DNA of 57,252 bases, from assembly GCA_043820285.1 (NCBI GenBank), contig JBDRDX010000011.1:1-57252 (forward strand). Direction: 5' to 3'. Each line of letters opens with the position of its first letter. Position 1 is the first letter of the stretch. The notes beneath the pieces were generated by a model. It was not told the origin of the DNA, made no database searches, and saw nothing but the letters and a program-made list of their open reading frames with translations. This DNA is from Patescibacteria group bacterium. Lineage in GTDB: Bacteria > Patescibacteriota > Gracilibacteria > UBA1369 > JAHKBB01. Made by a program: the position numbers and the translations under genes. Of this stretch, positions 6,013 through 38,746 are shown piece after piece.

Positions 6013-6041
6013 TTGACAATGGATATGCAAATCACTATCTT
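6013..6041 (+). promoter_or_regulatory. Second sigma70-like promoter candidate (TTGACA-17-TATCTT)
   Basis: Perfect -35 at 6013-6018, 17-nt spacer, TATCTT at 6036-6041. About 30 nt upstream of the ATG at 6073. Confidence 0.35.
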
Positions 6042-6072
6042 GAAGTCACTTCGAAATTAACAACTTAACCTT

Positions 6073-7149: not shown

Positions 7150-7164
7150 AAGTATATTTCAACC

Positions 7165-7479
7165 ATGGAAGACTGTGTTTTTTGCAAAATACGTGATGGC
7201 GAAATCCCATCTCCAAAACTTCATGAAGATGAACACTGCTACGCTGTAAACGACATAAATCCAAAAGCCAAAACTCACATCCTTATTATCCCCAACAAGC
7301 ACATCCATTCTATTGCAAAAATGGAGAAAGGAGACGAAACTCTGATAGGTCATATGGTAAAAATCGCACGTGATCTCGCGGCGGAGAGAGAACTCCGGGG
7401 CTACAAACTAGTGTTCAATGTCGAAAAACATGGAGGACAGGAAATCTTCCATATCCACATGCATTTATTGAGCGATTAG
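7165..7479 (+). CDS. HIT-family nucleotide hydrolase (HinT-like)
   Basis: 104 aa. CVFCKI near the N-terminus and histidine triad HIHMHLL near the C-terminus. Confidence 0.85.
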   Translation: MEDCVFCKIRDGEIPSPKLHEDEHCYAVNDINPKAKTHILIIPNKHIHSIAKMEKGDETLIGHMVKIARDLAAERELRGYKLVFNVEKHGGQEIFHIHMHLLSD

Positions 7480-8337: not shown

Positions 8338-9241
8338 TGCGGCCGTATTCTAGCATTTTCTCCAAAGGAGCCAAAGCCTTAGCCATAACGTCGTCCGGAA
8401 GCACAATCTCATTTATATCTTTTTCGAGACATTCAAGAAGATTTTCCAGGGTAATTTTCTTCTGTTGAATGCACTCGCCGCCAATACTAAAGAATTTTTT
8501 ATTCGGAGCATGACGCCGAAGAAGCTCAAGCATACCGATCTCGGTAGCTACAATAATGGTATCTACGTCAGACTCTTTTACGTACTTAATCATGCCGGTA
8601 GTGCTAAGTACCGCATCTGCGCGCTTCAAAACTTCCGGCTTGCACTCCGGATGCACAATAGCTTTTGCGTCAGGATAATTTTTCTTAGCCTCCAAAATCT
8701 TTTCCTCGGTGATTTTCGCATGAACATAACACCATCCCTCAGGTGCAATTATCTTCTTTTTCGTATTGCTTTGGACGTATGCGGCCAGATTCTGATCAGG
8801 TACAAAGATAATCTCGTCTGCAGGCAGTTTATTCGCTATATCAACCGCATTCGCGGAAGTACAGCAAATATCGCACAAGGTCTTCGTATCGGCTGTCGTG
8901 TTCACATAACACATCACAGCGGCCCCCGGATGCTTCTCCTTTAGATCCAAAAGCTTCTCTCTGGTAATCATCGCCGCCATGGGACACACAGCCTGCATGG
9001 ATGGTATAAAAACGCGGCTTTCAGGACTCAAAATCTTCACCATTTCAGCCATAAAAGTCACTCCGCAAAAGATGATGCGCTCGGGCTGGAGCTCGCGCGC
9101 TCTTTGCGCCAAATCAAAAGAATCTCCAAGTTCATCGGCGACATCATAGATTTCAGGCCTTTGATAATTATGAGCAAAAATGGTCACATTCTTGGCCTTT
9201 TTCAGGTCCAAAATACGCTGAATTATCTCCTTATCATTCAT
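8330..9241 (-). CDS. nadA: Quinolinate synthase
   Basis: 303 aa. Motifs FAHNYQRPEI, FCGVTFMAE and VHPEC, with conserved Cys positions of the [4Fe-4S] NadA fold. Confidence 0.9.
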   Translation of the reverse strand: MNDKEIIQRILDLKKAKNVTIFAHNYQRPEIYDVADELGDSFDLAQRARELQPERIIFCGVTFMAEMVKILSPESRVFIPSMQAVCPMAAMITREKLLDLKEKHPGAAVMCYVNTTADTKTLCDICCTSANAVDIANKLPADEIIFVPDQNLAAYVQSNTKKKIIAPEGWCYVHAKITEEKILEAKKNYPDAKAIVHPECKPEVLKRADAVLSTTGMIKYVKESDVDTIIVATEIGMLELLRRHAPNKKFFSIGGECIQQKKITLENLLECLEKDINEIVLPDDVMAKALAPLEKMLEYGRND

Positions 9242-9271
9242 AGCAGGGAGATAGTAGCAGGGGAGAGACTA

Positions 9272-9745
9272 TTAGTAAATGCCGTGAACAAATCTTAGCC
9301 ACAAATTCTTTAGCATCTCGTATGTAGCTTGAGCCAGATTCGCGAGTATGTGCTTTAGCTCCCGGAGTTTCTGAACGATGATGTTCAATTGATAAAAGTT
9401 TCTATTTGCAGGGTTGTGAAGAATTCGATTTCTCTGCTTTTCAAGCTGCCCAACCTCTTTTGAAATAGCCCTGTCAACTTCCTTTCTCATTTTCTCCTCT
9501 GTTGGGGGATTTTTTAGCAACTCCGCCTTAAGCTGCTTCGCCTTGTAAGCCTTTGCCTTTGCGGTGGAAGCGGCCTTGCGCTCTTGCGCTTTCTCTTTTT
9601 TCTCAGTGACTTCCTTTGGAATTTCTACAGCTTCAATTTGCTCAGCAATCTCTGAAGCCCCAGGCATAGCAGAATCAACCTTTCCATAAGATTGTTCTTG
9701 AACTTTCTTCAGTTCCTCCGGTTTTTCACTATGGTAATTTGTCAT
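9272..9745 (-). CDS. Hypothetical K/E-rich coiled-coil protein
   Basis: 157-aa ORF in a gap with no competing gene. No recognisable motif. Confidence 0.45.
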   Translation of the reverse strand: MTNYHSEKPEELKKVQEQSYGKVDSAMPGASEIAEQIEAVEIPKEVTEKKEKAQERKAASTAKAKAYKAKQLKAELLKNPPTEEKMRKEVDRAISKEVGQLEKQRNRILHNPANRNFYQLNIIVQKLRELKHILANLAQATYEMLKNLWLRFVHGIY

Positions 9746-9838
9746 TACAGCTTAATTATATGCACAAACCGTAATTTTGTCAACTCTTTCTATCCATCAA
9801 ATTATGTAGTAGTATCTACAAGAAAATTAACATACTTA

Positions 9839-12448
9839 GTGGAAGGAAATATAGCAAAAATATTCGACCCAAGCAAATACGAAAATCGCATATATCAGAA
9901 ATGGGAGAAAGCGGGAGCTTTTAAGCCTAATAATAAAAAGGGCGCAAAACCTTTCACGATCTCTATGCCGCCTCCAAATGCTACGGGTCAGCTCCACCTC
10001 GGCCACGCGATGATGCTGGCTATTCAAGACATAATGGCCAGGTACCACAGAATGAAAGGGGACTGCACCCTCTGGCTTCCGGGTACAGATCATGCCGCTA
10101 TTGCTACACAAAACAAAGTTGAAAAGGAACTGGCAAAAAAAGGAATTTCTCGGCATGACCTCGGAAGAGCTAAATTTCTCCAAGAAGTTCGTAAATATGT
10201 TAAGAATTCTCAATCCACCATCCGAAACCAAATACGCAAAGTCGGTTCAAGCTGTGACTGGTCCAGAGAAAGATACACAATGGACGACACCCTTACAAAT
10301 GCGGTTTTGGAAGTATTCATACGAATGTACAAAGACGGGCTCATATACCGCGGAGACAGGATCGTAAACTGGTGCCCAAGATGCTATTCCACACTCGCGG
10401 ATGATGAAGTTGAGTACAGGGAAGAAAAAGGCAAACTATATTGGATAAAATACGGGCCATTCAAGCTCGCAACAACACGTCCGGAAACAAAACTTGGCGA
10501 TACCGCAGTTGCGGTAAATCCAAAGGACAAGAGATACAAACATATGGTTGGAAAGAAATATATGATCCCGGGGGTTTTGGGCGAATTTGAAGTAACTGTA
10601 ATTGCGGATGACGCCGTAGATATTGAATTTGGGTCGGGCGCGGTAAAAGTAACTCCGGCACACAGTTTCGCGGATTTTGAGATGGCTCAAAAACACGGAA
10701 TCCCCGCAAAGAAAGTCATCGATGAAGATGGGAAGATGATGGAAAATTGCGGAAAATATGCCGGCATGCCGGTTGCGAAATGCAGAGAAGCAATATTGAA
10801 AGATATGAAGAAAATGGGACTTTTGCTCAAGGAAGAAGAATATGATCACAAACTGTCTGTTTGCTATAGATGCGACACGGCGGTTGAGCCATTAACCTCA
10901 GAACAATGGTTCGTAGATGTAGATAAAAAAGGTAAGTCATTGAAGAAAAAATCCATAGAAGTTGTACGAAACGGGAAGATCAAAATTATCCCGGAAAGAT
11001 TCGAAAAAACATACTTCCACTGGATGGAAAATCTGCACGATTGGTGCATCTCAAGACAAATCTGGTGGGGACACAGAATCCCTGTTTGGTACTGCAGGGA
11101 TTGCGATGAAATAATTGTCCGAAAGGCTACTCCGAAGAAATGCCCAAAATGTAAGTCAGACAAATTAAAGCAAGATAACGACACGCTGGACACGTGGTTT
11201 TCATCCGGACTTTGGACATTCTCCACACTTGGATGGCCAAAAAAAGACGGAGAGTTTAAAAAATTCCACCCGACAAATGTAATGGAAACGGGATACGACA
11301 TTCTGTTCTTCTGGATCGCGAGAATGATCCTCATGACAACATACGCAACGGGAGAAATCCCATTCCACTACGTGTATCTACATGGACTAATCCGCGACAA
11401 AAACGGCGAGAAAATGAGTAAATCAAAGCCGGAAACCTGCATTGACCCATTGGACATGATCGAAAAATACGGAGCGGACGCACTTCGCCTAAGCTTCATC
11501 ATCGGAGCTACAGCCGGAAATGACATCAAGCTATATGAAGAAAAGATCGCGGGATTCAGAAACTTTATTAATAAAATCTGGAACGCATCAAGATTTGCGA
11601 TGATGAACATCCTGGACAAGGACAAAAAGGTCAAATTCAGCAAACGCCACATAAAGTCCAGAGCGGACAAATGGATCATCACACGCCTCGAAAAATTGAT
11701 CCAAGAAACGACCGAAAACCTGGAAAAATTCCATTTCTCAGAAGCCGGACTAAAGATATATGACTTCCTATGGGGAGACCTTTGCGACTGGTATCTGGAA
11801 ATCACAAAAGGGGAGCACAAAAACCCGGTCGTCCTGTACCACGTCCTCAAAAACACATTAAAACTCTTGCACCCATTCGTACCATTCATAACAGAGGCAA
11901 TTTGGGAAAATCTCGGCGAAAAAGAAACGCTAATAACCTCCACGTGGCCAAAATACGACAAATCCCTGGTATATCCAAAAGAAGCCAAAGAAATGGAGTT
12001 AATCCACGAAGTAATTTCCTCAATCCGAAGAATGCGCGAAAAATATTCAGTTCCAATAAAAAAACAGATACACGCAGTCATATATGCGGGCAGTACAGCA
12101 AAAGCGTTAAAAGCAAAATCCGAACCAATAATGAGGCTCAGCTCAGTAGCCAAACTCGACATCAAAGCAAAAGGCCCAAAAATAAAGAAATCAGTATCAG
12201 CCTTCCTGAAAGGCATCGAAATCTACCTCCCGCTCGAAGACCTGGTCGACGCGGACAAAGAGAAAAAACGCATCCAAAACGAAATCGACTACAAACAAGG
12301 CTTCGTAAAACAGGTCCAAATAAAACTCCACAACAAAAACTTCGTAGACCGCGCTCCAAAACAAGTGGTCGAAAAAGAAAAGCGAAAACTTAGCGAGGCG
12401 GAGGATATGATCAAGAAACTCCAGAAACAGTTAAGGGAGCTAAATTGA
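9839..12448 (+). CDS. valS: Valyl-tRNA synthetase (start uncertain, probably GTG 9839)
   Basis: HIGH-type motif PPPNATGQLHLGHA, KMSKS, and a C-terminal coiled coil. There is no in-frame ATG near the conserved N-terminus (IFDPSKYENRIYQKWE). The track start at 9692 overlaps the divergent upstream gene. Confidence 0.93.
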   Translation: MEGNIAKIFDPSKYENRIYQKWEKAGAFKPNNKKGAKPFTISMPPPNATGQLHLGHAMMLAIQDIMARYHRMKGDCTLWLPGTDHAAIATQNKVEKELAKKGISRHDLGRAKFLQEVRKYVKNSQSTIRNQIRKVGSSCDWSRERYTMDDTLTNAVLEVFIRMYKDGLIYRGDRIVNWCPRCYSTLADDEVEYREEKGKLYWIKYGPFKLATTRPETKLGDTAVAVNPKDKRYKHMVGKKYMIPGVLGEFEVTVIADDAVDIEFGSGAVKVTPAHSFADFEMAQKHGIPAKKVIDEDGKMMENCGKYAGMPVAKCREAILKDMKKMGLLLKEEEYDHKLSVCYRCDTAVEPLTSEQWFVDVDKKGKSLKKKSIEVVRNGKIKIIPERFEKTYFHWMENLHDWCISRQIWWGHRIPVWYCRDCDEIIVRKATPKKCPKCKSDKLKQDNDTLDTWFSSGLWTFSTLGWPKKDGEFKKFHPTNVMETGYDILFFWIARMILMTTYATGEIPFHYVYLHGLIRDKNGEKMSKSKPETCIDPLDMIEKYGADALRLSFIIGATAGNDIKLYEEKIAGFRNFINKIWNASRFAMMNILDKDKKVKFSKRHIKSRADKWIITRLEKLIQETTENLEKFHFSEAGLKIYDFLWGDLCDWYLEITKGEHKNPVVLYHVLKNTLKLLHPFVPFITEAIWENLGEKETLITSTWPKYDKSLVYPKEAKEMELIHEVISSIRRMREKYSVPIKKQIHAVIYAGSTAKALKAKSEPIMRLSSVAKLDIKAKGPKIKKSVSAFLKGIEIYLPLEDLVDADKEKKRIQNEIDYKQGFVKQVQIKLHNKNFVDRAPKQVVEKEKRKLSEAEDMIKKLQKQLRELN

Positions 12449-12490
12449 CCCCTCCTCTTAAAGATGCTATAATAATAAAAACAAAACCAT

Positions 12491-13411
12491 ATGGCGAAGA
12501 ACTCCGATCAAATACTTGGGAGGATTCAGATGCTCATTGAAACAGGTGAGCATTTAAAAGCATACCACCTTTGTGTGGAGCTTTTGAAAGTCAATCCGGA
12601 AAATGGAAAGGCGGCAAGGATAATGAATGAACTTGAGGGAAAGATCCAAAAACAGCATATCATGGAGATAAAGGAACAGATCAGAGCCCTGGATCCACTT
12701 TGGGAACAAGGGAAATATCCGGAACTTGTACAAAGAATCCACGATTTATATGAACTGGCTCCAAACTATGGACCGATTGAGGAGCTGATGATAAAAGCTG
12801 AAACAAAATATAAAGAACAGATTGAAAAGCAGAAAAGAAAATTTTTAGAAGACTACGAAGCGGAATTAGAAAAGCTATTTGACGAAGATAAATACGAAGA
12901 TCTCGTATTCAAAACAGCAAAAACTTTAGCCGCATATCCTTCAAACGAAAGACTAAAAGAGCTGGGAATAAAAATGCGCACAAAAATGGTCAAAGCGGAA
13001 TTAGAGAAAAACAAACCACTGTTGGGATCAAGCGACTATGTTGGCATTGTTAAATTTCTTAACAAACTAAAGACGATCGAGCCAAGCTATGAAAAACTCG
13101 ACAAACTTCTCATCAAATACAAAAAGAAAGGACTAACAAATCTCTCAGATAAACAACAGGAATTCGTGTATAGGGGACTATCTCACGCAGAAACACTATT
13201 GCAACTAAAAAAATATGAAGCGGCAGCAATCATTTCCGCAGAGGTTTTGGAAATCGACCCGTTAAACAAAAAAGCGAAAGCGGTGTATGAGGAAGCTTCT
13301 CGCAAAGCCGACAAGCAAATCCAAAAGGAAACAGTCCAAAAAATCAAGGACGAGTACGCACAACTAAAGCGGGAATACAAAGCGGATTCGGAATTATTTA
13401 TCAGGGTCTAA
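12491..13411 (+). CDS. Hypothetical TPR-like/coiled-coil protein
   Basis: 306 aa, helical and K/E-rich. TPR-like segments include AYHLCVELLKVNPENGKA and AEVLEIDPLNKKAKAVYEEA. Confidence 0.45.
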   Translation: MAKNSDQILGRIQMLIETGEHLKAYHLCVELLKVNPENGKAARIMNELEGKIQKQHIMEIKEQIRALDPLWEQGKYPELVQRIHDLYELAPNYGPIEELMIKAETKYKEQIEKQKRKFLEDYEAELEKLFDEDKYEDLVFKTAKTLAAYPSNERLKELGIKMRTKMVKAELEKNKPLLGSSDYVGIVKFLNKLKTIEPSYEKLDKLLIKYKKKGLTNLSDKQQEFVYRGLSHAETLLQLKKYEAAAIISAEVLEIDPLNKKAKAVYEEASRKADKQIQKETVQKIKDEYAQLKREYKADSELFIRV

Positions 13412-26049: not shown

Positions 26050-27279
26050 ATGCTTGCCACTAATCAATCTGATATGAAAATACATTTGATTGGGATCGGA
26101 GGGATCGGAACAAGTGCTTTGGCACGTATATATAACGAACGCGGACATGAGATAAGCGGATCTGACATAGAAGACTCCGATTTGCTGAATGATCTACGAG
26201 GTGAAGGAATAAAAGTGGATATTGGGCACGATCCAATAAATCTTCCGGAGGACATAAACCTCGTCATATATTCAGAAGCAATTCCGAAGGAAAATGTGGA
26301 ACTTCAGGCGGCAAGGAGCAATCGGTTGACCTGCAAAACGTACTTCGAAGCGCTTGGAGATATTTCACGCGAATACAAAGTAATTGCCGTCTGCGGAACA
26401 CATGGAAAGACAACAGTAACCGCAATGGTGGCAAAAGTTTTCATCGATGCTGGATTGGACCCGTCTGTAGTCATCGGTACTAAAATGAAGGAACTTGGGA
26501 ATAAAAATTATCGAGTAGGGAAGTCACAGTGGTTGATTGTGGAAGCATGTGAATACAGAAGATCATTTTTGCACCTGTATCCGGACATAATTGTTCTCAC
26601 AAACGTAGAGTACGAACACCCGGATTATTACAAGGACTTTGAAGACTACAAAAACGCATTCGACGAATTTATCGCAAAGCTTCCGGAAGATGGGAAACTA
26701 ATAACAAGCTCTAAAGAATTCGCATTCGATCTTCAAATACCGGGTGACTTCAACAGAAAGAACGCAGGTCTGGTGATGGAACTTGCAGGCAAACTAGGTA
26801 TAGATTTTGATACAGCGACCACGTCTCTACAGGAATTCAAAGGTACATGGAGAAGATTCGAAATAACAGAGGAAATAGGGAACACAATAGTAATAGACGA
26901 CTACGCCCACCACCCAACGGAAATAAAAGCCACTCTTCGCGCGGCGCGGGAGAAATGGCCGGAAGCAAAGGTTCTATGTATATTTCAACCACACCAATAT
27001 TCCAGAACTTTAGAGCTTCTACATGAATTTGCAAGATCATTCCAGGACGTAAATGAAGTTGTAATTTCAAATATATATGAAGTCCGCGACACCGAAAAAG
27101 ACGTTGCGGCCATTTCTCCCGAAGACCTGGTCGAAGAAATAAATAAAGTCTCAAATAACGCCAGATACGGCGGTGGACTTCAAAACACAGAAAAAATACT
27201 CCAAAAAACCGCTGCCAAATACGATGTGATAATAAAAATGGGAGCAGGGGACATATGGGAGATTAAAGCTTCGGCTTAA
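26050..27279 (+). CDS. murC: UDP-N-acetylmuramate--L-alanine ligase
   Basis: IHLIGIGGIGTSALA, GTHGKTT P-loop, DDYAHHPTEI. Confidence 0.9.
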   Translation: MLATNQSDMKIHLIGIGGIGTSALARIYNERGHEISGSDIEDSDLLNDLRGEGIKVDIGHDPINLPEDINLVIYSEAIPKENVELQAARSNRLTCKTYFEALGDISREYKVIAVCGTHGKTTVTAMVAKVFIDAGLDPSVVIGTKMKELGNKNYRVGKSQWLIVEACEYRRSFLHLYPDIIVLTNVEYEHPDYYKDFEDYKNAFDEFIAKLPEDGKLITSSKEFAFDLQIPGDFNRKNAGLVMELAGKLGIDFDTATTSLQEFKGTWRRFEITEEIGNTIVIDDYAHHPTEIKATLRAAREKWPEAKVLCIFQPHQYSRTLELLHEFARSFQDVNEVVISNIYEVRDTEKDVAAISPEDLVEEINKVSNNARYGGGLQNTEKILQKTAAKYDVIIKMGAGDIWEIKASA

Positions 27280-28931: not shown

Positions 28932-31004
28932 CTACCTTCTTTTTATGCTGAAATAAAGTCCAGATACAAACAGCGCAATAACAACGATCCAAAGAATTTC
29001 CGGTCCCGTCTGAGCGGGAAAGTATGTATAGTATGAACCAGGATTGAGGGGATCTTGAACCGGATTAAGCCCTTGAAATGTTTCTGTGACAAATGGAGTG
29101 GATTCAACGATCTCGCTCATTTGCGGACTTTCATTTCCAAGGCTGTCGATAGCAGTTACCGCAAAATAATGTGGAGTCCCGTTCCGAAGATTTGGAATAT
29201 ACCAAGTTGGTGAATTTGCGAACGTATCTACCGCATACGTAAGTAAATTCGGGTCAGTTCCATAATAAATTCTGTAATTTTTGATTCCAGCCGGGCTTTC
29301 TGCCACCTTCCAAATCAAAGTTACCTTTGAATCAGATGGGATAACAGAGACACCGATCACATTAAATCCTCCTTCAAGGGCACCGCCATGCAACACGGTT
29401 ACGGTTCCTTGGCCGTCATATAAAGCTTCATTTCCAAGAGCATCGGTAAGGGAGACCGTAACATCATACGCGCCCGCCTTCGCGGGAGCATTCACAGTCC
29501 CGGTATAAGTCGAAGCCGAAGCGGTAGGCTGTAATGTAACACTTTCAGTACCAATCTTTACAATTACAGAAGTTAATCCCTCTTCAGTATGAACCGTAAC
29601 AGTCAGTGAAGACCCGGGCTCAACATCTCCTATAGGAAGAATCTCAACACTATCTACAAGAGGAACAGAAGCGTCTATAACAATAGTCACCGGATCGACC
29701 TCTGCAATAATTTCAAAATTTTCATCCAAAAGTACCGCCAAAAGGGTATGTTCTCCCTCCGCAAGCGGAGTTGTTTCAAATGTGTAATTTCCATCTGCAT
29801 CAGCTTCCGTGAATCCAAATTCCTCATCGTTATCATAAAACCCGATAGTGAATCCGGGAGGAGCACTTCCAGCCAAAGTTTGAACGGTCTGGCTATACGT
29901 AGCGGGAAGAGGGGAAGTTAAAGTAAAATTATACTCACCCGCAATTTGTGCTCCCACAGACGGTTTAACCCCGGTCCCAACAGTAACATCTATCATCCCC
30001 GTCACACTGAGATCGTCAATATCGATGGCTTCTATAGAAAACAACCCTTCCTGAAGGAATTTAAGTCCAAGACTATATGTATGAGATCCGAGGTCATCCT
30101 TTGTAAACACGTAATCTACTTCAGGCAGCTCAACCATATTTCCATTTTCGCCGGGAGCGGATATATGGACAGTACCGGTATAGTCTGTGACCACCTTGTC
30201 ACCAGCATTATATGCCGTGACAGTGAATGAGATATTTTTATTCAAAGCAACGGGACTTTTAATACCCTCAATGGCTAGATAACTAACGGTGGAAGCGTCC
30301 GCTACCAAATTGTCATAATCTCCACCGGCATACGAAAGTCTGGAATATTCGGTTTCGAAATAAACTTCCGGTCTATTCTTCAAAACTTTTCCCGAAGTCG
30401 TATCAAACACAGAGTAAACAGAAACTCCAGGCTCATTTGACTCTACATTGAACAGAACTTCTCCAGTCGAACTTGTATAAGGCTTCCCGCCAACTGTGGA
30501 AACCGTATCTTCTTCACGACTAGAGATAACTGTGACCTCATGACCTCTTACAGCATTTCCATACTGATCCTTGAGCTTAACCGTCAAAAGAATCGGATTG
30601 TCCAAAGCCGCAGTTCTTTGCGCCGCATTTGCGGTGGATTTGGCGGAAGAAACTTCGTCCGGATAAACGGTAAAAGTACTCTCATCGCCAAGAACATTGT
30701 CATACTTGGAATAAACTGTGTATAAACCGGCTTTTGTAAGATCCTCTCCAAAAATATCTAAACTGGCGCTACCCGTGCCGTCTGTTTTAACTTCATAAAC
30801 TTCCTTTGTTCCATCCGGATGTTCAAGGAAAAGAGAAAGGTTTCTATTAGGCAAAGTGTTACCTGTTTCTAATGTGGTTCCAAATCCGGCAATGGTATCT
30901 ATAGCAGTAACATCCGGAGCAAGTGAAGCCGCGTATGCGGTACCCGCAGTCATAAATAGAGTGACTGCGGACAGAAATGAAATTTTCATAAACTTCGAAA
31001 ACAT
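28932..31004 (-). CDS. Secreted, C-terminally membrane-anchored surface protein with Ig-like (Big_1-type) and fibronectin-III-like domains
   Basis: Signal peptide MKISFLSAVTLFMTAGTAYA. LTVKLKDQYGNAVRGHEVTVIS is Big-like. KVTLIWKV...YRIYYGTDP...HYFAVTAIDSLGNES is FN3-like. C-terminal TM then KRR. Confidence 0.7.
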   Translation of the reverse strand: MFSKFMKISFLSAVTLFMTAGTAYAASLAPDVTAIDTIAGFGTTLETGNTLPNRNLSLFLEHPDGTKEVYEVKTDGTGSASLDIFGEDLTKAGLYTVYSKYDNVLGDESTFTVYPDEVSSAKSTANAAQRTAALDNPILLTVKLKDQYGNAVRGHEVTVISSREEDTVSTVGGKPYTSSTGEVLFNVESNEPGVSVYSVFDTTSGKVLKNRPEVYFETEYSRLSYAGGDYDNLVADASTVSYLAIEGIKSPVALNKNISFTVTAYNAGDKVVTDYTGTVHISAPGENGNMVELPEVDYVFTKDDLGSHTYSLGLKFLQEGLFSIEAIDIDDLSVTGMIDVTVGTGVKPSVGAQIAGEYNFTLTSPLPATYSQTVQTLAGSAPPGFTIGFYDNDEEFGFTEADADGNYTFETTPLAEGEHTLLAVLLDENFEIIAEVDPVTIVIDASVPLVDSVEILPIGDVEPGSSLTVTVHTEEGLTSVIVKIGTESVTLQPTASASTYTGTVNAPAKAGAYDVTVSLTDALGNEALYDGQGTVTVLHGGALEGGFNVIGVSVIPSDSKVTLIWKVAESPAGIKNYRIYYGTDPNLLTYAVDTFANSPTWYIPNLRNGTPHYFAVTAIDSLGNESPQMSEIVESTPFVTETFQGLNPVQDPLNPGSYYTYFPAQTGPEILWIVVIALFVSGLYFSIKRR

Positions 31005-31150: not shown

Positions 31151-32044
31151 ATGAAAAAGACTAAAGCTATATTCCTGGACGGGAAATTTGTCCCCTGGGA
31201 TAAAGCCAAAATCCACATTTTGACTCACACACTGCATTACGGAAGCGGAGTGTTTGAAGGTATACGTTTCTACAATACAGAAAAAGGACCTGCGGTATTT
31301 AAGCTTAAGGAGCATATGGCAAGGCTGATAAGTTCAGCAAAAGTGTTTGAGTTAAAAATTCCATATACGGAAAAGGAGCTGGCAAAAATAACTTTAAAAC
31401 TGATAAAAAAGAGCGAATTAAAGAAAGGGTACATCAGACCAATCGTATTTCTTGGAGCGGATAAAATAGGGCTAAACCCAAAAGGCTGTTCTGTCCATGT
31501 AGCGATAATAGTCGCGCCATTTGAAAGTTATCTGGGTGACAAAAGGATCAAAGTGGGAATTTCCAAATACAGAAGATTCGACCCGAGTGAGACGAATATT
31601 AAAGCAAAAGCATGCGGGCATTACGTAAATTCTATTCTGGCAAGCATGGATGTGCGTAATAGGGGATTCGATGAAGCCGTTTTACTAGACAGAGACGGAA
31701 AGATTGCGGAAGGACCGGGAGAAAATATTTTCATAGTGAAAAACGGAAAAATCATTACCCCAAAGGCGAAAAACATTTTACCGGGCATTACAAGAAAATG
31801 CGTTAAACGCATAGCAAAAGACAATAATATTAAATTCTTGGAAAAGATTATAAGCGTAAACGGATCGAAAAACGCTGATGAAATATTTCTTGCGGGGACA
31901 GCGGCAGAAATAACGGAGGTGGAAAAGATAGATAACAAAAAACTTCCCGCAAAAAACCCAGTAACAAAATTAATCAAATCCACATACCTTGATGCCGTAC
32001 ACGGCAGAATCAAAAAATACAATAAATGGCTCTCATATGTATAA
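31151..32044 (+). CDS. ilvE: Branched-chain amino acid aminotransferase (class IV PLP fold)
   Basis: 297 aa. HTLHYGSGVFEGIRFY, a lysine-containing KAKACGHY region, GITR. Confidence 0.85.
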   Translation: MKKTKAIFLDGKFVPWDKAKIHILTHTLHYGSGVFEGIRFYNTEKGPAVFKLKEHMARLISSAKVFELKIPYTEKELAKITLKLIKKSELKKGYIRPIVFLGADKIGLNPKGCSVHVAIIVAPFESYLGDKRIKVGISKYRRFDPSETNIKAKACGHYVNSILASMDVRNRGFDEAVLLDRDGKIAEGPGENIFIVKNGKIITPKAKNILPGITRKCVKRIAKDNNIKFLEKIISVNGSKNADEIFLAGTAAEITEVEKIDNKKLPAKNPVTKLIKSTYLDAVHGRIKKYNKWLSYV

Positions 32045-33587
32045 AAAAATATTCACAACATTACTCACAACAATTATAACCGCATTATTTCTCGTCCCGG
32101 CCGCATACGCAGAAGGTGTGATAGAAGAAGAAACAGAGGAACCAATAATAAAAGCTGTGATTCAGGCGGATACGAGCGTGGAAACCGGAAGAAACATCAT
32201 ATTTGATGCTTCAAACTCATATTTGAAAGACGTAGACAAAGAAACTGTGCGGTACGAATGGAGTTTCGGAGACGGTAATGCAGACGAAGGGATAGAGGTC
32301 GTACACACATATAGAGATCCACAACTGTATAATGTGGCTCTTTCAATTCGCCAAAACGGAGAATTAATTGCTGAAGCCGCTCATCGAGTGCATGTATATA
32401 GAAAATTGACCATACTTTTAACCGACAAGACCGAAGAACAAAATAGAATACAAGGCATAAAAAATTACGCATCGGATGAACAGGTGTTCATCGAAGAAAT
32501 CGAAAGTTTTGGGAGCGCATCGGAGTTTATCTCGGAGGAAATTTTGGCCAAAAGACTGAAAGAAAATACAAAAATTGTAGATAAAGCAAAACAGATAATA
32601 GTCTGGACAAACGGAAATGCAGGACTCAATGCTCTTTCCAGATTTCTTAAAGAAAGCAACCAGAAATTAACGGAAAAGGTGGTAATTGTCATAGCAAGCG
32701 ACATAGGAATAACTTCTTCCAGAATAGAAAGGCAATTCCCACTTCTGCAGCCGAAAAAAATTCTCATAATCACGGAATCGGCCATATACCCTCTTATCGA
32801 AAGCACATCAGAGGAAAAATTCATGGAAAAACTGGAAAAAGAAGGGTACCCACACAAGGTAATCGACAGTAAATCCGGAAGACTCAATCCATGGAATTTC
32901 ATGTCATATTTCGTGAATTTCCTAATTGAAAGTGGAATCCCGGACAACACAGTCATTCTCATACTACTACTCCCAATAATTGCAACCGTAGTGGCATTTA
33001 TGCGGCAGTTGGTTGGAATAACAACATTCGGTATTTACTCTCCATCAATTATCACTCTTGCATTACTCATACTGGGACTAAAATTCGGACTTATTACATT
33101 TATGATAGTACTGGCAATGGGAGGTGCGGCGAGACACGCGCTTCGCAAAACGAGACTGCTCTTCATACCTAAAATGGCGATAGTTCTGACATTTGTGTCG
33201 CTGACAATTTTCGCACTACTTATTATAACTATCTACTTTAACTGGTTTGATGCAGAGTTTATCGCACTTGCAATATTCCCAATCCTCATAATGAGTACGC
33301 TCTCGGAAAAATTCATCAACGCACAGAGCGAAAGAGGATTCTTATCCGCAATGGTACTGATGGGAGAAACGATTTTGGTGTCAATAATTGCATACTTCGT
33401 CGTAGGAGGGGCAATAGACCTTGGCTTGTTCACACTACAATGGGAATTTGTTAAAAACCTAATGCTGGCATATCCGGAACTGATCTTCTTGATACTCATA
33501 ATAAATATCCTTCTCGGGCGCTGGACGGGACTCAGGATCCTGGAATACGTCAGATTCAGAGAAATATTAAGACATATTGAAGAATAA
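32037..33587 (+). CDS. Signal-peptide PKD-domain protein fused to a C-terminal 7TM module of the 7TM_transglut type
   Basis: Start at ATG 32037 (MYKKIFTTLLTTIITALFLVPAAYA). PKD motif IIFDASNS...YEWSFGDGN...HTYRDPQLYNVALSI. The 7TM block carries the hallmark VGITTFGIYSPSIITLAL and terminal GRWTGLRILEYVRF. Confidence 0.7.
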   Translation: MYKKIFTTLLTTIITALFLVPAAYAEGVIEEETEEPIIKAVIQADTSVETGRNIIFDASNSYLKDVDKETVRYEWSFGDGNADEGIEVVHTYRDPQLYNVALSIRQNGELIAEAAHRVHVYRKLTILLTDKTEEQNRIQGIKNYASDEQVFIEEIESFGSASEFISEEILAKRLKENTKIVDKAKQIIVWTNGNAGLNALSRFLKESNQKLTEKVVIVIASDIGITSSRIERQFPLLQPKKILIITESAIYPLIESTSEEKFMEKLEKEGYPHKVIDSKSGRLNPWNFMSYFVNFLIESGIPDNTVILILLLPIIATVVAFMRQLVGITTFGIYSPSIITLALLILGLKFGLITFMIVLAMGGAARHALRKTRLLFIPKMAIVLTFVSLTIFALLIITIYFNWFDAEFIALAIFPILIMSTLSEKFINAQSERGFLSAMVLMGETILVSIIAYFVVGGAIDLGLFTLQWEFVKNLMLAYPELIFLILIINILLGRWTGLRILEYVRFREILRHIEE

Positions 33588-33589
33588 CC

Positions 33590-35962
33590 ATGCTTTTTAA
33601 AACTCACGGAATTTTAGGCATCAACGCGAGAAACCTTTTATATATTAGGCCGTATAATAAAAAAAAGGCGGTCGAGCTCGCCGACGACAAGATCAAGACA
33701 AAAAAGTTCTTGGAGGCTCGTGATATTCCAGTTCCAAAGATGTATGGAGTAATAAAGTCTAAAGAAGAACTCGAGAAGTTTGAGATGGAAAAACTTCCAA
33801 ATAGCTTCGCCCTAAAACCAAATTTTGGGTACGGAGGTGAGGGGATTATCCCAATAATTAACAAAAGAGGAAGTCACTGGATAAAGGTTAATGGAGAAAA
33901 AATAACCAAAGAAGAACTGAATGATCAAATTGTAGATATATTGGATGGACGATTCTCTATTTCAAACGTTTCTGACTCTGCATTTTTTGAGCAACTTATA
34001 ATAAGTCATGATTCCATAGGAAAATTTGCGTACGAAGGACTTCCGGATATACGTGTGGTGGTCCACAATCTCATCCCGGTAATGGCAATGCTCAGAATTC
34101 CCACAAAAGAATCCGGTGGACGTGCAAATCTGCATCAAGGAGCTATAGGCGCCGGAATAGACATAGCGAAAGGAGAAGTCACATACGTGGCGTATAAACA
34201 CAAGATTATTGATGAGATCCCGGGAGTTGGAAAGATAAAAGGAACAAAGATCCCATTCTGGGACGAAATACTGATGATTGCTTCAAAAGCACAACTTGCG
34301 ACAAACCTTGGATATCTCGCAGCAGACATAGCTCTAGACAAAACATCGGGACCACTGCTCATAGAGATAAACGCGAGAGCGGGACTGGGCGTGCAAATAG
34401 CGAATTTAGCACCACTGCGTAGAAGATTGGAGCGAATAGAAGGCGTAAAAGTCACTACACCGGAGAAGGGGATTAGGATTGCGAAGGATATGTTCGGAAA
34501 TGTGATGGAAAAAGAACTCGCTCACAAAACGGGCAAGGAAATCATAGGTGCAGAAGAGGAAATAGAAATTATCTTGGGTGAAGGCACTGTAAAAATAAAA
34601 GCCGCAATAAACACAAATTATGAAAGGACTGTAATAGACGAACAGTTCGCGGATGAAATGAAATTACTCGAAAATCACGATGCATACGATGATGAGAAAT
34701 CCACACTGAAACTAAAATTTTCGATCCGCAGCAAAAGAACTCAAACAATCGCGGATGTAGAACCATTAAAAAATACAAAATATAAAATAATCATAGGAAA
34801 CAGGGATCTCAAAGATTTTCTCATAGACCCATCCAAATCACCTGTGAAAGACATTCAAATCTCAAAAGAATCCAAAAGAATAAAGAAAGAATTGAATTAC
34901 TACGAAATAGATCAACAAATAGTGGATGTTTCAAGTAAATTGAAGTTGTTATACCATTTGCGTCCAACAAATTTGGAAGAAGAGAAAAAGAAGTTCTTTA
35001 AAGATTTCAAATACAATCCGCAATTCAAGTATCCGGAACTTAGATTTGATCCAAGCGAGGTGTACGAAGAGCTCGAGAAGATCGAAACAGACGACACCGC
35101 ACTTGGCAAAGTATTCCAAGCAAAAGTAGAGGAACTCAAAGGGCAGGTAAGCCTAATGGAAAGCATAGGAAAAGACGAATTTACGGAGAAATCCATAGAC
35201 CTGTTTGGCAAACCGGGAAGAGAAGTGCTGGAGGAAGTTGAAGCTAAAATGAAAAAAATTGACTCCATCCCAAAAGACATGGAAGGAACGATGAAAGCTG
35301 ATGAAGTAAAAAAGAGGTTTGATGAAGTGTTCAAAAAATACAAATTAAAAAATTGGAAAGCAAAACTCAAAGATGACTTGGTAGCGGACTGTACAGCCGG
35401 AAAAAGAAACAGGCTATTACTGAGAAAAGACGCAACTTTCAGCGAAGAACGAATAAAAGCGCTTATAGTCCACGAAATTGAAACTCACATTCTTACGGCG
35501 GAAAACGGAAAGAATCAACCATACGAAATATTTAACAGAGGATTGGCGAACTACATGGAGACTCAAGAAGGTCTCGCAATATACAATGTGACAAAACGCC
35601 TGCATTATGGAGACAAACAAAACTACCGCGCATTCGCGCTGGTCATCGCTATCGCAGAAGCACAAGAGAAATCATTCGTAGAAGTTTTTGAAAAGTTACT
35701 TCAAGGAAATATTCCATTAGAAAGAGCATTTAGAACAGCGATAAAAGTAAAAAGAGGACTCACAGACACAAGTAAACCGGGGTGTTTCACAAAAGACCTC
35801 ATCTACTATACCGGCATGAGGAAGATTGAAAAATACGTAGAAGAGAAAGGCGACATAAAAGATCTGTACATGGGGAAATTTTCGCTGGAGGACCTGGAAA
35901 CAGTAAAAAGAATGGAAGGGATAAAACCGCCAAAATATCTCCCCGAATGGCTATCGATGTGA
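33590..35962 (+). CDS. Three-module fusion: RimK-related ATP-grasp ligase (alpha-L-glutamate ligase-like), degenerate retropepsin-like module, DUF1704/MATCAP-like metallocarboxypeptidase (QEGLA motif protein)
   Basis: aa 1-290: GILGINARNLLYIRPYN, FALKPNFGYGGEGI, LLIEINARAGLGVQIAN. aa about 315-420: IGAEEEIEIILGEGTVKIKAAINTNYERTVIDE...YKIIIGNRDLKDFLIDP. aa about 445-790: YHLRPTNLEEEKKKFF, HEIETH (35471-35488), METQEGLAIYN. Confidence 0.8.
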   Translation: MLFKTHGILGINARNLLYIRPYNKKKAVELADDKIKTKKFLEARDIPVPKMYGVIKSKEELEKFEMEKLPNSFALKPNFGYGGEGIIPIINKRGSHWIKVNGEKITKEELNDQIVDILDGRFSISNVSDSAFFEQLIISHDSIGKFAYEGLPDIRVVVHNLIPVMAMLRIPTKESGGRANLHQGAIGAGIDIAKGEVTYVAYKHKIIDEIPGVGKIKGTKIPFWDEILMIASKAQLATNLGYLAADIALDKTSGPLLIEINARAGLGVQIANLAPLRRRLERIEGVKVTTPEKGIRIAKDMFGNVMEKELAHKTGKEIIGAEEEIEIILGEGTVKIKAAINTNYERTVIDEQFADEMKLLENHDAYDDEKSTLKLKFSIRSKRTQTIADVEPLKNTKYKIIIGNRDLKDFLIDPSKSPVKDIQISKESKRIKKELNYYEIDQQIVDVSSKLKLLYHLRPTNLEEEKKKFFKDFKYNPQFKYPELRFDPSEVYEELEKIETDDTALGKVFQAKVEELKGQVSLMESIGKDEFTEKSIDLFGKPGREVLEEVEAKMKKIDSIPKDMEGTMKADEVKKRFDEVFKKYKLKNWKAKLKDDLVADCTAGKRNRLLLRKDATFSEERIKALIVHEIETHILTAENGKNQPYEIFNRGLANYMETQEGLAIYNVTKRLHYGDKQNYRAFALVIAIAEAQEKSFVEVFEKLLQGNIPLERAFRTAIKVKRGLTDTSKPGCFTKDLIYYTGMRKIEKYVEEKGDIKDLYMGKFSLEDLETVKRMEGIKPPKYLPEWLSM

Positions 35963-35963
35963 A

Positions 35964-37121
35964 TTATATCTTCTTTCCTTCTCCTTGTCCCCACCTCATA
36001 TTATCCGCGGCCTGCTCTTTACCTTTTCCAACATTTTTTATCACAATCAAAGAGATGTCATCAGCCTGCAATGCATTGCCAACAAACCTGGAAAATTCAG
36101 TGGCTGTATGATAAGAAATTCCCTCCGGAGAATATTCCGCTGCAAAACGTTTGATATTTTCAATTAACCGGGAAAGTCCAAACATTTCTTCCTGCTCGTT
36201 CTTTGCCTCCACAATCCCATCGGTATACAAAACCACTACATCTCCTACATTCAACTTCAACTCCTGCTCTTTAACAATTTTTGAATTATCCGGAACCATC
36301 CCTAGAGCTATACCTCCGGCCTTAATGGATTCACATTCTCCACTGTCAGCTCTATATACAAGAAGGTATTCATGCCCGGCGCCAACATATGTCATCTTTT
36401 GAGCTTCGTGATCCCAACTGAGCACCACCATTGTCATAAACATGGTGGATCGAATACGAGACTTGAGCTGTTTATTTACGCTCACAACAATGTCGTAGAT
36501 ATTATTTCTAAGCTCGGAAAAAATAGAAACAAGCGTATGAACCATAGTCATCACAAGAGCGGCAGGCACTCCGTGGCCTGTTACATCACCTATATACATA
36601 AGGGTTTTCTTTCCTCCATCGAAGTCAACAAAATCAAAGTTGTCACCACCAACCTCTACAGCAGACCTGGTCTTGGCAACCACCTCAAGCCCCGGAACAA
36701 CAGGCGGTTTTTCAGGCAAAATATCAGTTTGCAGCCGAGCGGCAACACTTAGTTCTTCCGCCATGCGTTTCCCTTCCTTCACAGTTCCGGAGATTTTCGA
36801 AAGACTCTCTGTAATCTTATTGAAGAAAAAAGCTAAAATGCCAATTTCATCAGTACGTTTTGTGTACACCTTTTTGAAAGACCTGCCGGTAACCATGGCT
36901 TTCATCTGTTTCAGGATGGATCTCATTGGCTTCACAACAACAAAGTAGACCCAGAATAAATAAAGTACCAAAACCGCCCCGATGATAATTGCAGCCAACT
37001 CAACCGATATAAAAGGTTCTTTAACATATCCCAGGTAATACACAAACCCCGCGATCAGCCCAAGCAGGATCAAAAAGTGGATGATAAGCTTCCAAATCAG
37101 ACTTTGTTTTATGAACGTCAT
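35964..37121 (-). CDS. Membrane-bound HAMP-domain PP2C (SpoIIE/RsbU-type) serine phosphatase
   Basis: Two N-terminal TMs. HAMP region VKPMRSILKQMKAMV...DEIGILAFFFNKITESL. PP2C motifs GGDNFDF and YIGDVTGHGVPAALVMT, plus LYTDGIVEA and ADDISLIVIK. Confidence 0.85.
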   Translation of the reverse strand: MTFIKQSLIWKLIIHFLILLGLIAGFVYYLGYVKEPFISVELAAIIIGAVLVLYLFWVYFVVVKPMRSILKQMKAMVTGRSFKKVYTKRTDEIGILAFFFNKITESLSKISGTVKEGKRMAEELSVAARLQTDILPEKPPVVPGLEVVAKTRSAVEVGGDNFDFVDFDGGKKTLMYIGDVTGHGVPAALVMTMVHTLVSIFSELRNNIYDIVVSVNKQLKSRIRSTMFMTMVVLSWDHEAQKMTYVGAGHEYLLVYRADSGECESIKAGGIALGMVPDNSKIVKEQELKLNVGDVVVLYTDGIVEAKNEQEEMFGLSRLIENIKRFAAEYSPEGISYHTATEFSRFVGNALQADDISLIVIKNVGKGKEQAADNMRWGQGEGKKI

Positions 37122-38746
37122 TTTTTGTTTAGTGATGTTTTTATATGTCTTAGTATGTTCTTTGGTATTTTGTTTTCAATCAAGGGAAATACCTTTTTTG
37201 ATACTACCTTATCGTCACATAAAAGTAAATGAGCCAAGTATTCACATGACGAGTTGTAATCCAAATTCGCAAGAATATCTATAATCTTTGTTTTAACTTT
37301 CTCCGGCAACAAATCCGAACTGAGAGCTTTTGAAAATATTGCAAAAACGCCACTGTGACCCTTTTGCATCAATATTTCTACAGCATCTTCTTTATCGTGA
37401 ACCGAGGAATTTTCGTCAAAAAGCAAAGCTACCGCCGAACGGGTATATTGCTTTCGGGATCGAAGCACATACCCCATCATAAATACGGCGGTAATAGCCA
37501 AAGCCGCATTTGTTGTCAGTAAAAGCATTTCACCCTTAAACAAAAATTGCAGAACAACGATTATGGACATTCCGATAATCGCGGAGAACGGCCTGACAAA
37601 ACCATCTAAAAACTCCCTGCTCAATTCTCTGGACTTATCGGGCAGTATATAAAAAGCCGAATGATAGGCATTTTTAAAAATCGCATTCGTCATTTCCGTA
37701 TTGTTCTTTGCAAATACACCCGTTAAGTATGAGAAATTCAGTGTAAGTCCAAGAACACTTAAAAAAGCAACCATAGGATATAAAAGTATGCTTGAAACAA
37801 CTCCCAGACTTGCAATAATCCTGCTTCCGGCAAAAACCTGTATGAATAAAGCGGACCCACCAAACAGAATCTGCAGCGATCCCAACGCGTGTACGAGAGC
37901 GTGCTCATAAGAACTCACCGTTTGAGGCAAGTCCATATCCGACATAACAGACGCGGAAATCGATTTGGTGTATTGAAATTCCATCAGGCTGAAAAACAGC
38001 CACTGAAATAGAACTATAAACACCAACGTAGCCAAAAACGGGGTCTTTCTCGACCTTCCAATCCCTTTAACAAGAATGTCTATGAATGTGGATTTTTTCT
38101 TTTGGGCCTCAGAAATTTCTTCTGAATATCCCCCCCCCAAATACCTATTAGCCAGTGAAAGCGCCGGCACAATCATCAAAATCGAAAAAATCCACAAATA
38201 CAAAAAATTATGAGGCTCAACAATCTCAGATAACGTGGCTAAAACAATACCGGCCAGAAGAATTGCAACCGTATCAGCAGATTCTATAACAGGGAAAGTC
38301 CTCTGACTCGAAAGCGGAGTGAAGAATCTCTCGACAAACGCGGCGATGAGGATATTAAGCTGATACAAAAAGAATGATTCAGCGAATATCAAAACCGGAA
38401 AGATGAAAACATTACTATTTTTCATCAAAAGCGTCGCAAGCAGAATTACAACAGACGCTGTAAGAACCGTCCAAATGATGAGGTGGGAATTCTTAAATCT
38501 ACTAACCAATCTGGTATAAACAGTCCCGCTTGCCAGGATAAAAAGACCATTGGCCATAAAAAGAAATGGTAAATACTTGATCCCATAATTACTAACCAAA
38601 AGAGCAATTATGACAGTCCATCCCACGACAAACCCAAATCTATAAAAGAACTTCACAAAGAAGCACGCACAAACACGCGATAATTCGTTCGACTTCACAT
38701 TCAAAAATCGGGTCAGAAACGTTTCTTTGGCTCTTTTACTAACCAT
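37118..38746 (-). CDS. Polytopic membrane protein (MFS- or ATP/ADP-translocase-like transporter fold) with a cytoplasmic HEAT-like C-terminal repeat region
   Basis: About 11-12 predicted TM segments. C-terminal helical repeats (EDAVEILMQKGHSGVFAIFSKALSSDLLPEKVKTKIIDILANL). The family call is tentative. ATGA overlap with the PP2C gene. Confidence 0.35.
   Translation of the reverse strand: MVSKRAKETFLTRFLNVKSNELSRVCACFFVKFFYRFGFVVGWTVIIALLVSNYGIKYLPFLFMANGLFILASGTVYTRLVSRFKNSHLIIWTVLTASVVILLATLLMKNSNVFIFPVLIFAESFFLYQLNILIAAFVERFFTPLSSQRTFPVIESADTVAILLAGIVLATLSEIVEPHNFLYLWIFSILMIVPALSLANRYLGGGYSEEISEAQKKKSTFIDILVKGIGRSRKTPFLATLVFIVLFQWLFFSLMEFQYTKSISASVMSDMDLPQTVSSYEHALVHALGSLQILFGGSALFIQVFAGSRIIASLGVVSSILLYPMVAFLSVLGLTLNFSYLTGVFAKNNTEMTNAIFKNAYHSAFYILPDKSRELSREFLDGFVRPFSAIIGMSIIVVLQFLFKGEMLLLTTNAALAITAVFMMGYVLRSRKQYTRSAVALLFDENSSVHDKEDAVEILMQKGHSGVFAIFSKALSSDLLPEKVKTKIIDILANLDYNSSCEYLAHLLLCDDKVVSKKVFPLIENKIPKNILRHIKTSLNKK

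Follow-up and report, generated by a model that had tools for sequence, protein, structure and literature searches.

Gene sets that join an ATP-grasp ligase, a seven-transmembrane (7TM) protein and a peptidase have been discussed in bacteria since 2009, according to the account of Iyer et al. given in PMC12239564. In Pseudomonas, the product of rloA is a secreted retropepsin cutting Glu-rich sequences, that of rloB an inactive transglutaminase-7TM protein and that of rloC a cytoplasmic ATP-grasp protein, and deletion of rloB or rloC suppresses the loss of RloA proteases (PMC12239564). Searches for encoded poly-Glu stretches that might be the Rlo substrate failed (PMC12239564). The ligase RimK extends the tail of ribosomal protein S6 (RpsF; ...GDSEE in E. 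coli) with Glu in a system that has a retropepsin-type eraser, RimB, and it makes also free poly-α-Glu (PMC11957791). RloA and RimB are poly-Glu-cleaving peptidases (PMC12239564, PMC11957791), while MATCAP-family enzymes are deglutamylases and detyrosinases of the -EE(Y) tails of tubulin (PMC10499314). The present analysis deals with a locus of two genes, gene 1 coding for a RloB-like membrane protein with a terminal Glu-Glu and gene 2 for a fusion of a putative ligase and a putative carboxypeptidase. It is found in a window of 57,252 nucleotides, the whole stretch of DNA analysed (contig JBDRDX010000011.1, assembly GCA_043820285.1), from a Patescibacteria group bacterium of the Gracilibacteria that uses the standard genetic code.

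The original prediction had described the pair, from the sequence alone, as a compact candidate system modifying a C-terminus. This core reading is supported by profile searches and by co-conservation of the two genes. The two open reading frames (ORFs), their coordinates and the 2-nt spacer between them (TAA-CC-ATG) are confirmed, and the three motifs quoted with the prediction are all present. The view that the substrate and the role of such systems are unknown still stands for the substrate, while for the role it no longer holds entirely after the work on Pseudomonas rlo (PMC12239564). Among the roles that had been listed, ligation onto a protein C-terminus gains a specific candidate target, the conserved -EE tail of gene 1, and the most fitting description of the pair is that of a re-engineered Rlo/RimK-type writer-eraser module.

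We give about even chances to a writer-eraser reading, in which the Glu tail at the predicted cytoplasmic C-terminus of gene 1 is lengthened by gene 2 and cut back again, the added residue being most likely glutamate. Docking of the gene 2 protein on this tail would likely be the task of its retropepsin-like middle domain, since RimB and RloA, the active peptidases to which this domain is probably related, hold poly-Glu tails. The ATP-grasp domain would then activate the terminal carboxylate with ATP and add amino acids singly, most likely Glu, and the MATCAP-type zinc carboxypeptidase domain would take the added residues off, also singly. The steady-state length of the tail could act as an ATP-dependent rheostat that sets how active the 7TM protein is at the envelope, or which partners it has there. 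Glu is favoured as the added residue because the ligase is RimK/RloC-like and the middle domain probably comes from poly-Glu peptidases, and also because the MATCAP family deglutamylates and the number of encoded Glu varies, as in the RimK-extended S6 tail.

The -EE tail co-occurs with MATCAP-bearing ligases. In statistics pooled over 168 loci, the 7TM partners of these ligases end in EE in 96 of 99 cases; the same end is seen in 0 of 10 partners of MATCAP-less ligases, in 0 of 2 proteobacterial RloB proteins (Legionella, Aeromonas) and in 12 of the 901 other ORFs of at least 250 aa from the same loci (1.3%). Each of the 120 proteins closely homologous to gene 1 ends ...RFRE[VI]LRH[IVTL]EE with 2-5 terminal Glu. 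The tail of gene 1 itself reads ...LEYVRFREILRHIEE as a short peptide, its last segment is arginine-rich, and a pair of acidic residues at the end is found in no other non-shadow ORF of the window. The number of terminal Glu in 96 distinct MATCAP-linked 7TM partner sequences is two in 47, three in 41, four in 3, five in 2 and zero in 3, a variation that is expected if the tail is extended after translation. The EE end persists after divergent preceding residues (HIEE, DSEEE, LQEEE, LDEEE, ISEEE, GNEEE, DDQEE), in six of the eight clusters formed by MATCAP-linked 7TM proteins at 40% identity, and under three gene orders, with the 7TM gene adjacent upstream, adjacent downstream, or downstream with intervening genes. 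EE-tailed lineages include Peribacteria as well as Absconditabacteria/SR1 and relatives; the tails of code-25 loci depend on the genetic code chosen for each locus, which was the one that keeps the fusion ORF intact. The possibility that the EE tail is a general trait of 7TM_transglut proteins was considered and rejected, the tail being missing in the Legionella and Aeromonas RloB, in two metagenomic RloB-type proteins and in eight partners of MATCAP-less ligases.

Judged from their sequences, the ATP-grasp and the MATCAP domains of gene 2 both have intact catalytic residues. The RimK-related ATP-grasp start proposed for gene 2 is borne out by PF14397 (ATPgrasp_ST; 220.6 bits, aa 14-284) and by TIGR02291 (rimK_rel_E_lig; 273.8 bits, aa 4-290, model positions 8-296 of 317), the latter score missing the equivalog cutoff of 314.2 in a protein of 790 aa when single-domain family members have ~317 aa. 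The match to RimK proper (TIGR00768) is weak and partial (46.5 bits against a cutoff of 143.4, aa 17-91), and no TTL family profile is found among the Pfam matches of gene 2 at E up to 0.01. The nearest solved folds to the ligase domain in Foldseek are RimK (5zct), RimK-RpsF (5zk6) and ArgX/LysX-LysW, with cyanophycin synthetase also listed; RimK-RpsF and ArgX/LysX-LysW act on protein C-terminal Glu, which was counted for tail extension. Residues K76, D153, R155, R169, D246, E259, N261 and R263 are kept in the complete homologues (165 loci), apart from two conservative R263K exceptions.

The predicted fusion of the ATP-grasp domain to a peptidase holds equally well. The C-terminal part of gene 2 matches PF08014 (MATCAP, formerly DUF1704) with 215.3 bits (cutoff 27; aa 469-789) and TIGR02421 (QEGLA) with 217 bits, below the equivalog cutoff of 338.65. 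A phmmer comparison of gene 2 with the PDB retrieves only human MATCAP/KIAA0895L (7z5g; E 3.5e-18), HEIETH being aligned to HEIGTH and QEGLA to EEGLA, and Foldseek matches the C-terminal part to the same structure (E 8e-14). No variation is seen at H628, E629, H633 and E660, either among 34 diverse fusions or in any complete locus. Both catalytic domains appear to be under purifying selection because their catalytic residues are near-invariant across homologues. The AlphaFold2 model of gene 2 (pLDDT 85) has three globular parts, whose relative placement is unreliable given a pTM of 0.50.

The segment that links the two enzymes is probably a decayed RloA/RimB-like domain, so that the set would be condensed into two genes even more than had been noted. 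A search of 1.84 billion representative proteins for relatives of gene 2 yields three architectures: ligase, middle domain and MATCAP (~780-860 aa), ligase and middle domain (~430-480 aa), and MATCAP alone. In the MATCAP-less ligases the middle domain presents the motif AK[IVL]DTGA and matches PF05618 with 24-36 bits (top 35.7, cutoff 27). The corresponding segment of the window is too divergent for a direct Pfam match. Comparison by hhalign of ten fusion-type middle domains with four bona fide RloA proteins gives a match of moderate strength (probability 81.9%, E 1.1e-5, 102 columns). The middle domain of gene 2 is probably catalytically dead because its D-T/S-G position reads NTN. The motif D[TS]G is kept next to a MATCAP domain in 9 of 147 loci and 4 of 81 representatives, and where MATCAP is missing in 11 of 14 loci and 30 of 49 representatives. 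In sequence comparison this relation between MATCAP presence and DTG loss looks like an eraser swap, the aspartic peptidase having decayed where the metallocarboxypeptidase was acquired; the decayed domain may survive as a tail-binding module, by analogy with its active relatives. There is no secreted RloA gene in the window or in the related loci of the candidate phyla radiation (CPR), where every peptidase domain is cytoplasmic. If the middle of gene 2 is a RloA/RimB-type domain, as profile comparison suggests, the two genes hold homologues of all three rloABC parts, with MATCAP in addition.

Several metagenome contigs (L152-L160, L167) carry ligases of 427-432 aa with an apparently active DTGA retropepsin domain, whose genes overlap by 14 nt with that of a short 7TM protein (306-355 aa) ending in a non-acidic tail (...RHAGK, ...KHDSH). 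This clade looks like a stage preceding the MATCAP swap.

Gene 1 codes for a surface-exposed PKD/α-β receptor-like protein set on a 7TM_transglut membrane module. The predicted succession of signal peptide, PKD domain, α/β region and 7TM_transglut agrees with the PF14402 and PKD_4 matches (Table 1) and with an AlphaFold2 model built on 44 homologues (pLDDT 79.8), in which a signal helix, a PKD sandwich, an α/β domain, seven transmembrane (TM) helices and a C-terminal helix follow each other. The ORF runs from ATG 32037 to the stop codon at 33585-33587; this start is preferred to the upstream TTG 31989 because all homologues begin at the equivalent M-x-K-K. The same architecture is found in 120 homologues (48-100% identity), which conserve in the signal peptide the KK pair, the hydrophobic stretch and A-x-A. 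Foldseek relates the PKD domain to those of collagenase (ColG; E 6.6e-7, TM 0.86). With the full-length model it gives PKD matches only, none being convincing for the α/β ectodomain or the 7TM module, and it reveals no transporter-like fold or motif for the latter. The α/β ectodomain has no Pfam match and sits where RloB has its inactive transglutaminase domain. The 7TM_transglut hallmark G-x-R-x-x-E-x-x-R-F reads GLRILEYVRF in gene 1. Membership in the NCBIfam RloB family (NF052267) is defined by a full-length match of at least 900 bits and an N-terminal inactive transglutaminase. In gene 1 only model positions 312-507 of 508 align (60.2 bits), the N-terminal part being occupied by the PKD and α/β domains, so the protein falls outside the family; an alignment confined to the 7TM part means that the RloB-defining inactive transglutaminase is absent. 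The K/R residues cluster in loops predicted inside, and five of them lie in the final 24 residues of the protein; the loops predicted outside are acidic. The model supports a topology with the N-terminus outside and the C-terminus cytoplasmic, because the ectodomain is outside, seven helices follow and the charges have a positive-inside pattern. A shorter variant of the 7TM partner, 256-257 aa long, is coded at ~6230-7001 of two loci labelled Peribacteria/Gracilibacteria (L070, L079); it is devoid of PKD or α/β ectodomain and ends ...KLIFKNN.

A genome scan with an alignment of 12 sequences, using one genome per species, found relatives in 517 species, the best 80 loci being all from Peribacteria/Peregrinibacteria. 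Named matches to both proteins come from metagenome-assembled genomes of Candidatus Peregrinibacteria/Peribacteria, a few being labelled Gracilibacteria or Nitrospirota, and full-length gene 2 homologues extend across Peribacteria, Absconditabacteria and relatives. When the Peribacteria loci with adequate flanks (at least 2 kb on both sides) from the scan and two look-ups are taken together, a 7TM gene is present in 56 of 60, directly upstream in 54. The neighbourhood is largely syntenic in related Peribacteria genomes, with genes for an Ig-like surface protein, a SpoIIE phosphatase and MurJ, so that adjacency within the Peribacteria, taken by itself, is only a weak sign that the two genes are functionally linked. 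Distant fusions (25-45% identity) are found in Absconditabacteria/SR1, Vampirococcus and related lineages, in which UGA codes for Gly. Their 7TM gene is located directly upstream (L088), directly downstream (for example L091, L095, L104) or, at a distance of 0.6-4.6 kb, further downstream, where a second RimK-like gene often lies in between and in SR1 RAAC1 also a Mur-ligase-like gene. The linkage thus survives rearrangement, which supports a functional tie between the two proteins.

A single-chain archaeal version of the pair is coded by an unannotated ORF of 584 aa on a plasmid of Halobacterium sp. DL1 (CP007061, positions 5164-6918). Its 7TM_transglut-type module (aa 57-250) ends RLKEYYRFNS and is fused to a RloC-like ATP-grasp domain (aa 283-564). 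Here the ligase sits where the 7TM module ends in the cytoplasm, at its C-terminus, which implies that this lineage can do without a free 7TM C-terminus.

Several observations weigh against extension of the gene 1 tail. Eighty-one of the EE cases are Peribacteria loci, so the counts are not phylogenetically independent and come nearer to 6-8 independent lineages. The 7TM tails of L070 (and L079; ...IFKNN), L076 (...KTLD) and L124 (...LNKKK) are non-acidic and their enzymes keep all catalytic residues. A nearby 7TM gene is missing in 4 of the 60 Peribacteria loci and, among code-25 loci with adequate flanks, in 18 of 32, being present in the other 14. The identity of the added residue is deduced from family resemblance. 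Nor can the 7TM protein be the substrate throughout the wider family, the Rlo-type tails being non-acidic and the Halobacterium C-terminus not free, and the genetic results in Pseudomonas suggest that the product gets into the periplasm.

The last point bears on an explanation that we regard as improbable, though deserving attention, according to which gene 2 makes free poly-α-glutamate or a short peptide whose length is set by the carboxypeptidase, the 7TM protein exports or uses this product, and the -EE end is only a dock or primer that tethers the enzyme. Suppression of RloA loss by rloB or rloC deletion argues for a RloB/RloC-dependent product acting outside the cytoplasm (PMC12239564), and the fact that secreted RloA counteracts RloB/RloC favours export for the ancestral system. 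RimK does synthesize free poly-α-Glu (PMC11957791), Rlo-type and MATCAP-less systems pair a 7TM protein with a ligase when no EE tail is present, the Halobacterium fusion works without a free 7TM C-terminus, and the RimK-like and Mur-ligase-like genes between fusion and 7TM gene in SR1 recall polymer synthesis. Yet the CPR peptidase domains are all cytoplasmic and fused to the ligase with no secreted RloA nearby, the 7TM module has no transporter-like fold or motif in the Foldseek comparison, and export leaves unexplained both the match between EE tail and MATCAP and the variation from 2 to 5 Glu. That near-invariant EE tail of the 7TM partner is equally unaccounted for if the substrate is another protein, such as ribosomal protein S6 or some other acidic-tailed cytoplasmic protein, and the 7TM protein is an anchor or sensor regulating the enzyme. 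We consider this quite unlikely. S6, with its -EE end, is the known target of RimK (PMC11957791), many code-25 genomes have the fusion with no 7TM gene within ~6 kb, and three lineages pair intact enzymes with non-acidic 7TM tails; against this, no other EE-tailed gene recurs beside the fusion in 7TM-less loci and the match to RimK proper is weak. A role of the 7TM tail as a LysW-like carrier, with the γ-carboxyl of its terminal Glu holding an amino acid or metabolite that the carboxypeptidase releases, seems very improbable: the ligase domain has one of its best structural matches in ArgX/LysX-LysW and LysW shares the acidic Glu tail, but the pair has no conserved association with a set of kinase, reductase or aminotransferase genes such as the LysW pathway possesses (a class-IV aminotransferase is found in 9 of 74 loci).

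Table 1. Features of the two-gene locus, with positions in the window.
Feature	Position	Strand	Description and basis
Gene 1	32037..33587	+	516-aa RloB-like membrane protein: signal peptide, PKD, α/β ectodomain, 7TM_transglut, C-terminal -EE
Predicted Sec-type signal peptide, aa 1-25 (MYKKIF...PAAYA)	32037..32111	+	Read from sequence, cleavage before E26; N-terminal helix in model
PKD domain, aa 35-111, extracellular	32139..32369	+	PF18911 (PKD_4), 53.7 bits; PF00801, 38.6 bits
Rossmann-like α/β ectodomain, aa 122-276, six-stranded	32400..32864	+	AlphaFold2 model, alternating β-α elements, pLDDT ~90
7TM_transglut module, aa 307-510	32955..33566	+	PF14402, 94.1 bits (cutoff 25); seven TM helices in model
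Predicted cytoplasmic C-terminal segment LGRWTGLRILEYVRFREILRHIEE, conserved	33513..33584	+	Homologue tails
Terminal Glu-Glu, proposed acceptor site	33579-33584	+	Tail conservation, co-occurrence with MATCAP
Gene 2	33590..35962	+	790-aa cytoplasmic three-domain enzyme: ATP-grasp ligase, degenerate retropepsin-like domain, MATCAP carboxypeptidase
RloC/RimK-like ATP-grasp ligase domain, aa 4-295	33599..34474	+	PF14397, TIGR02291, Foldseek
Mg/ATP motif E259-x-N261-x-R263	34364-34378	+	Within ATP-grasp domain
Degenerate retropepsin-like domain (RloA/RimB, PF05618-type), aa ~305-420	34502..34849	+	Profile-profile comparison; β-rich in model
Catalytic D-T/S-G position, N341-T342-N343	34610-34618	+	NTN replaces DTG
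MATCAP/TMCP-family metallocarboxypeptidase domain, aa 441-789	34910..35956	+	PF08014
Zinc motif H628-E-I-E-T-H633	35471-35488	+	HExxxH, MATCAP domain
QEGLA (E660)	35564-35578	+	Downstream Glu ligand, MATCAP domain

The region of the pair has a GC content of ~0.39-0.40, similar to the rest of the window (0.36-0.46), and a scan for promoters and terminators around the two genes gave results at or below the expectation from shuffled sequences. A class-IV aminotransferase gene (31151-32044, + strand; PF01063, 176 bits) overlaps gene 1 by 8 nt and forms with the pair a block of three co-directional genes. Its product could supply L- or D-Glu. It was rejected as a component of the system and is treated as incidental because no more than 9 of 74 related Peribacteria loci share it; in SR1 the gene found upstream of the fusion codes for an aminotransferase of class I/II, which is unrelated. 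Upstream and divergent (28932-31004, - strand) is a gene for a 690-aa protein with a signal peptide, Big_13/Big_1/Big_6 Ig-like domains and a C-terminal membrane anchor, which has a homologue in the fetched stretch of 48 of 69 related Peribacteria loci and also beside the 7TM-only variants of L070 and L079. Convergent with gene 2 and ending 1 nt past it is a gene for a membrane-anchored SpoIIE/PP2C phosphatase (35964-37121, - strand), followed by one for a 542-aa polytopic membrane protein with no Pfam match (37118-38746, - strand); the SpoIIE block of relatives has also genes for a STAS anti-sigma-antagonist and a HEAT-repeat/MFS protein. A gene of the Mur-ligase family (26050-27279, + strand; 409 aa) adjoins cysS ~5 kb upstream of the pair, and is probably devoted to ordinary peptidoglycan synthesis because a related locus (L002) likewise has a Mur-ligase gene beside cysS.

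Some of the related loci have neighbours of their own. In SR1 bacterium RAAC1_SR1_1 (CP006913, L086, positions 7001-13232) the fusion gene is followed by genes for a RimK-family ATP-grasp protein (9446-10324), a Mur-ligase-like protein (10346-11596) and an EE-tailed 7TM protein (...HFDSEEE), and the pairing of ATP-grasp and Mur-ligase is reminiscent of cyanophycin synthetase. A second RimK-like ligase recurs in L063, L092, L097, L098, L127, L165 and L167. The fusion gene of four Peribacteria-like loci (L074, L080, L081, L082) overlaps a preceding leuD-like gene and has no 7TM gene within the fetched flanks. A different EE-tailed gene replacing the 7TM gene was looked for in loci that have none and was rejected as an explanation, since none recurs; the candidates were shadow ORFs inside the fusion and one unrelated 376-aa ORF from a single clade.

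To our knowledge the MATCAP family has so far been known only from the editing of tubulin tails, as detyrosinase and deglutamylase. We put forward with less than even confidence that the encoded -EE of a membrane protein is reversibly extended by a fused ATP-grasp writer and trimmed by a MATCAP eraser, as a bacterial tail code. This would be the first prokaryotic cycle of (poly)glutamylation at the C-terminus of a membrane protein, and a living relative of the ancestral pairing behind the eukaryotic TTL(L)/MATCAP cycle on tubulin tails. If true, it is the first concrete clue to the targets of the widespread Rlo-type ligase-7TM systems, and the CPR version offers a specific candidate substrate that is cheaply testable, an 11-residue peptide ending -HIEE. 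The apparent exchange of a retropepsin for a MATCAP eraser, coinciding with the appearance of the EE tail, amounts to a natural experiment. Throughout a whole bacterial class MATCAP is physically fused to a RimK-like ligase, a fact of relevance to how the enzymes that edit tubulin tails originated. Episymbiotic CPR bacteria have very small genomes, and the upkeep of a two-protein system of ~1,300 residues in such a genome implies an important function at the envelope. A literature search of limited scope, and no proof of novelty, found no paper linking MATCAP with ATP-grasp or Peregrinibacteria with ATP-grasp.

The closest described system is RloABC of Pseudomonas aeruginosa (Lormand et al. 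2025, PMC12239564), which Pfam credits to an earlier prediction by Iyer et al. in 2009. In it a 7TM_transglut gene is likewise found beside a TIGR02291-type ligase in an envelope-associated set, with a PF05618-type third part to which the middle domain of gene 2 probably corresponds. Instead of the inactive transglutaminase of RloB, the ectodomain of gene 1 is formed by a PKD and a Rossmann-like α/β domain; the probable retropepsin homologue is internal, cytoplasmic and decayed (NTN for DTG), whereas RloA is secreted and active; a MATCAP domain is added; and the 7TM protein ends -EE(E)n, unlike Rlo-type RloB. In proteobacteria the recognised third partner is the secreted retropepsin RloA (PF05618), not the DUF1704 protein that had been listed among the neighbours. 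No MATCAP/DUF1704 gene lies within ~6 kb of five Rlo-type loci, a small sample that does not refute that listing. A complete rloABC-like operon is present on the 54-kb plasmid 5 of Legionella adelaidensis (NZ_LR134414, 3996-9217), where the rloA homologue is annotated as 'RimK/LysX family protein' and two genes for C1-family cysteine peptidases follow the operon on the opposite strand.

The systems RimK/RimB(/RimA)-S6 and the RimBK hybrid of Desulfotalea (Little et al. 2025, PMC11957791) have an ATP-grasp ligase that adds Glu to an acidic C-terminus, as is proposed for the pair, and a retropepsin-type eraser, to which the middle domain of gene 2 is probably related. RimK is the nearest solved fold to the ligase of gene 2, and RimBK is a precedent for the fusion of ligase and peptidase. 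The proposed target is here a membrane protein rather than S6, and the ligase belongs to the TIGR02291 branch and not to RimK proper. The order of domains in gene 2 is ligase then peptidase while in RimBK the peptidase precedes the ligase, and the working eraser would be a metallocarboxypeptidase.

LysW, from the AAA (α-aminoadipate) lysine pathway, ends in an acidic Glu tail. Its ligases LysX/ArgX resemble the gene 2 ligase as ATP-grasp enzymes that recognise the acidic C-terminal Glu of a partner, with a good structural match. The rest of that biosynthetic pathway is not linked to the pair, and where LysW is a carrier of 54 aa, the partner here is a large membrane protein. The tubulin cycle (TTL/TTLL with MATCAP/TMCP1-2; 7z5g, PMC10499314) combines a writer of ATP-grasp fold, an eraser with the motif HExxxH...E and an acidic -EE tail, whose encoded form corresponds to the 'erased' state, as that of gene 1 would. 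It differs in that the writer and the eraser of the bacterial locus are joined in one polypeptide, with a ligase that has no listed TTL-family match and with a 7TM protein, rather than tubulin, as the proposed bearer of the tail.

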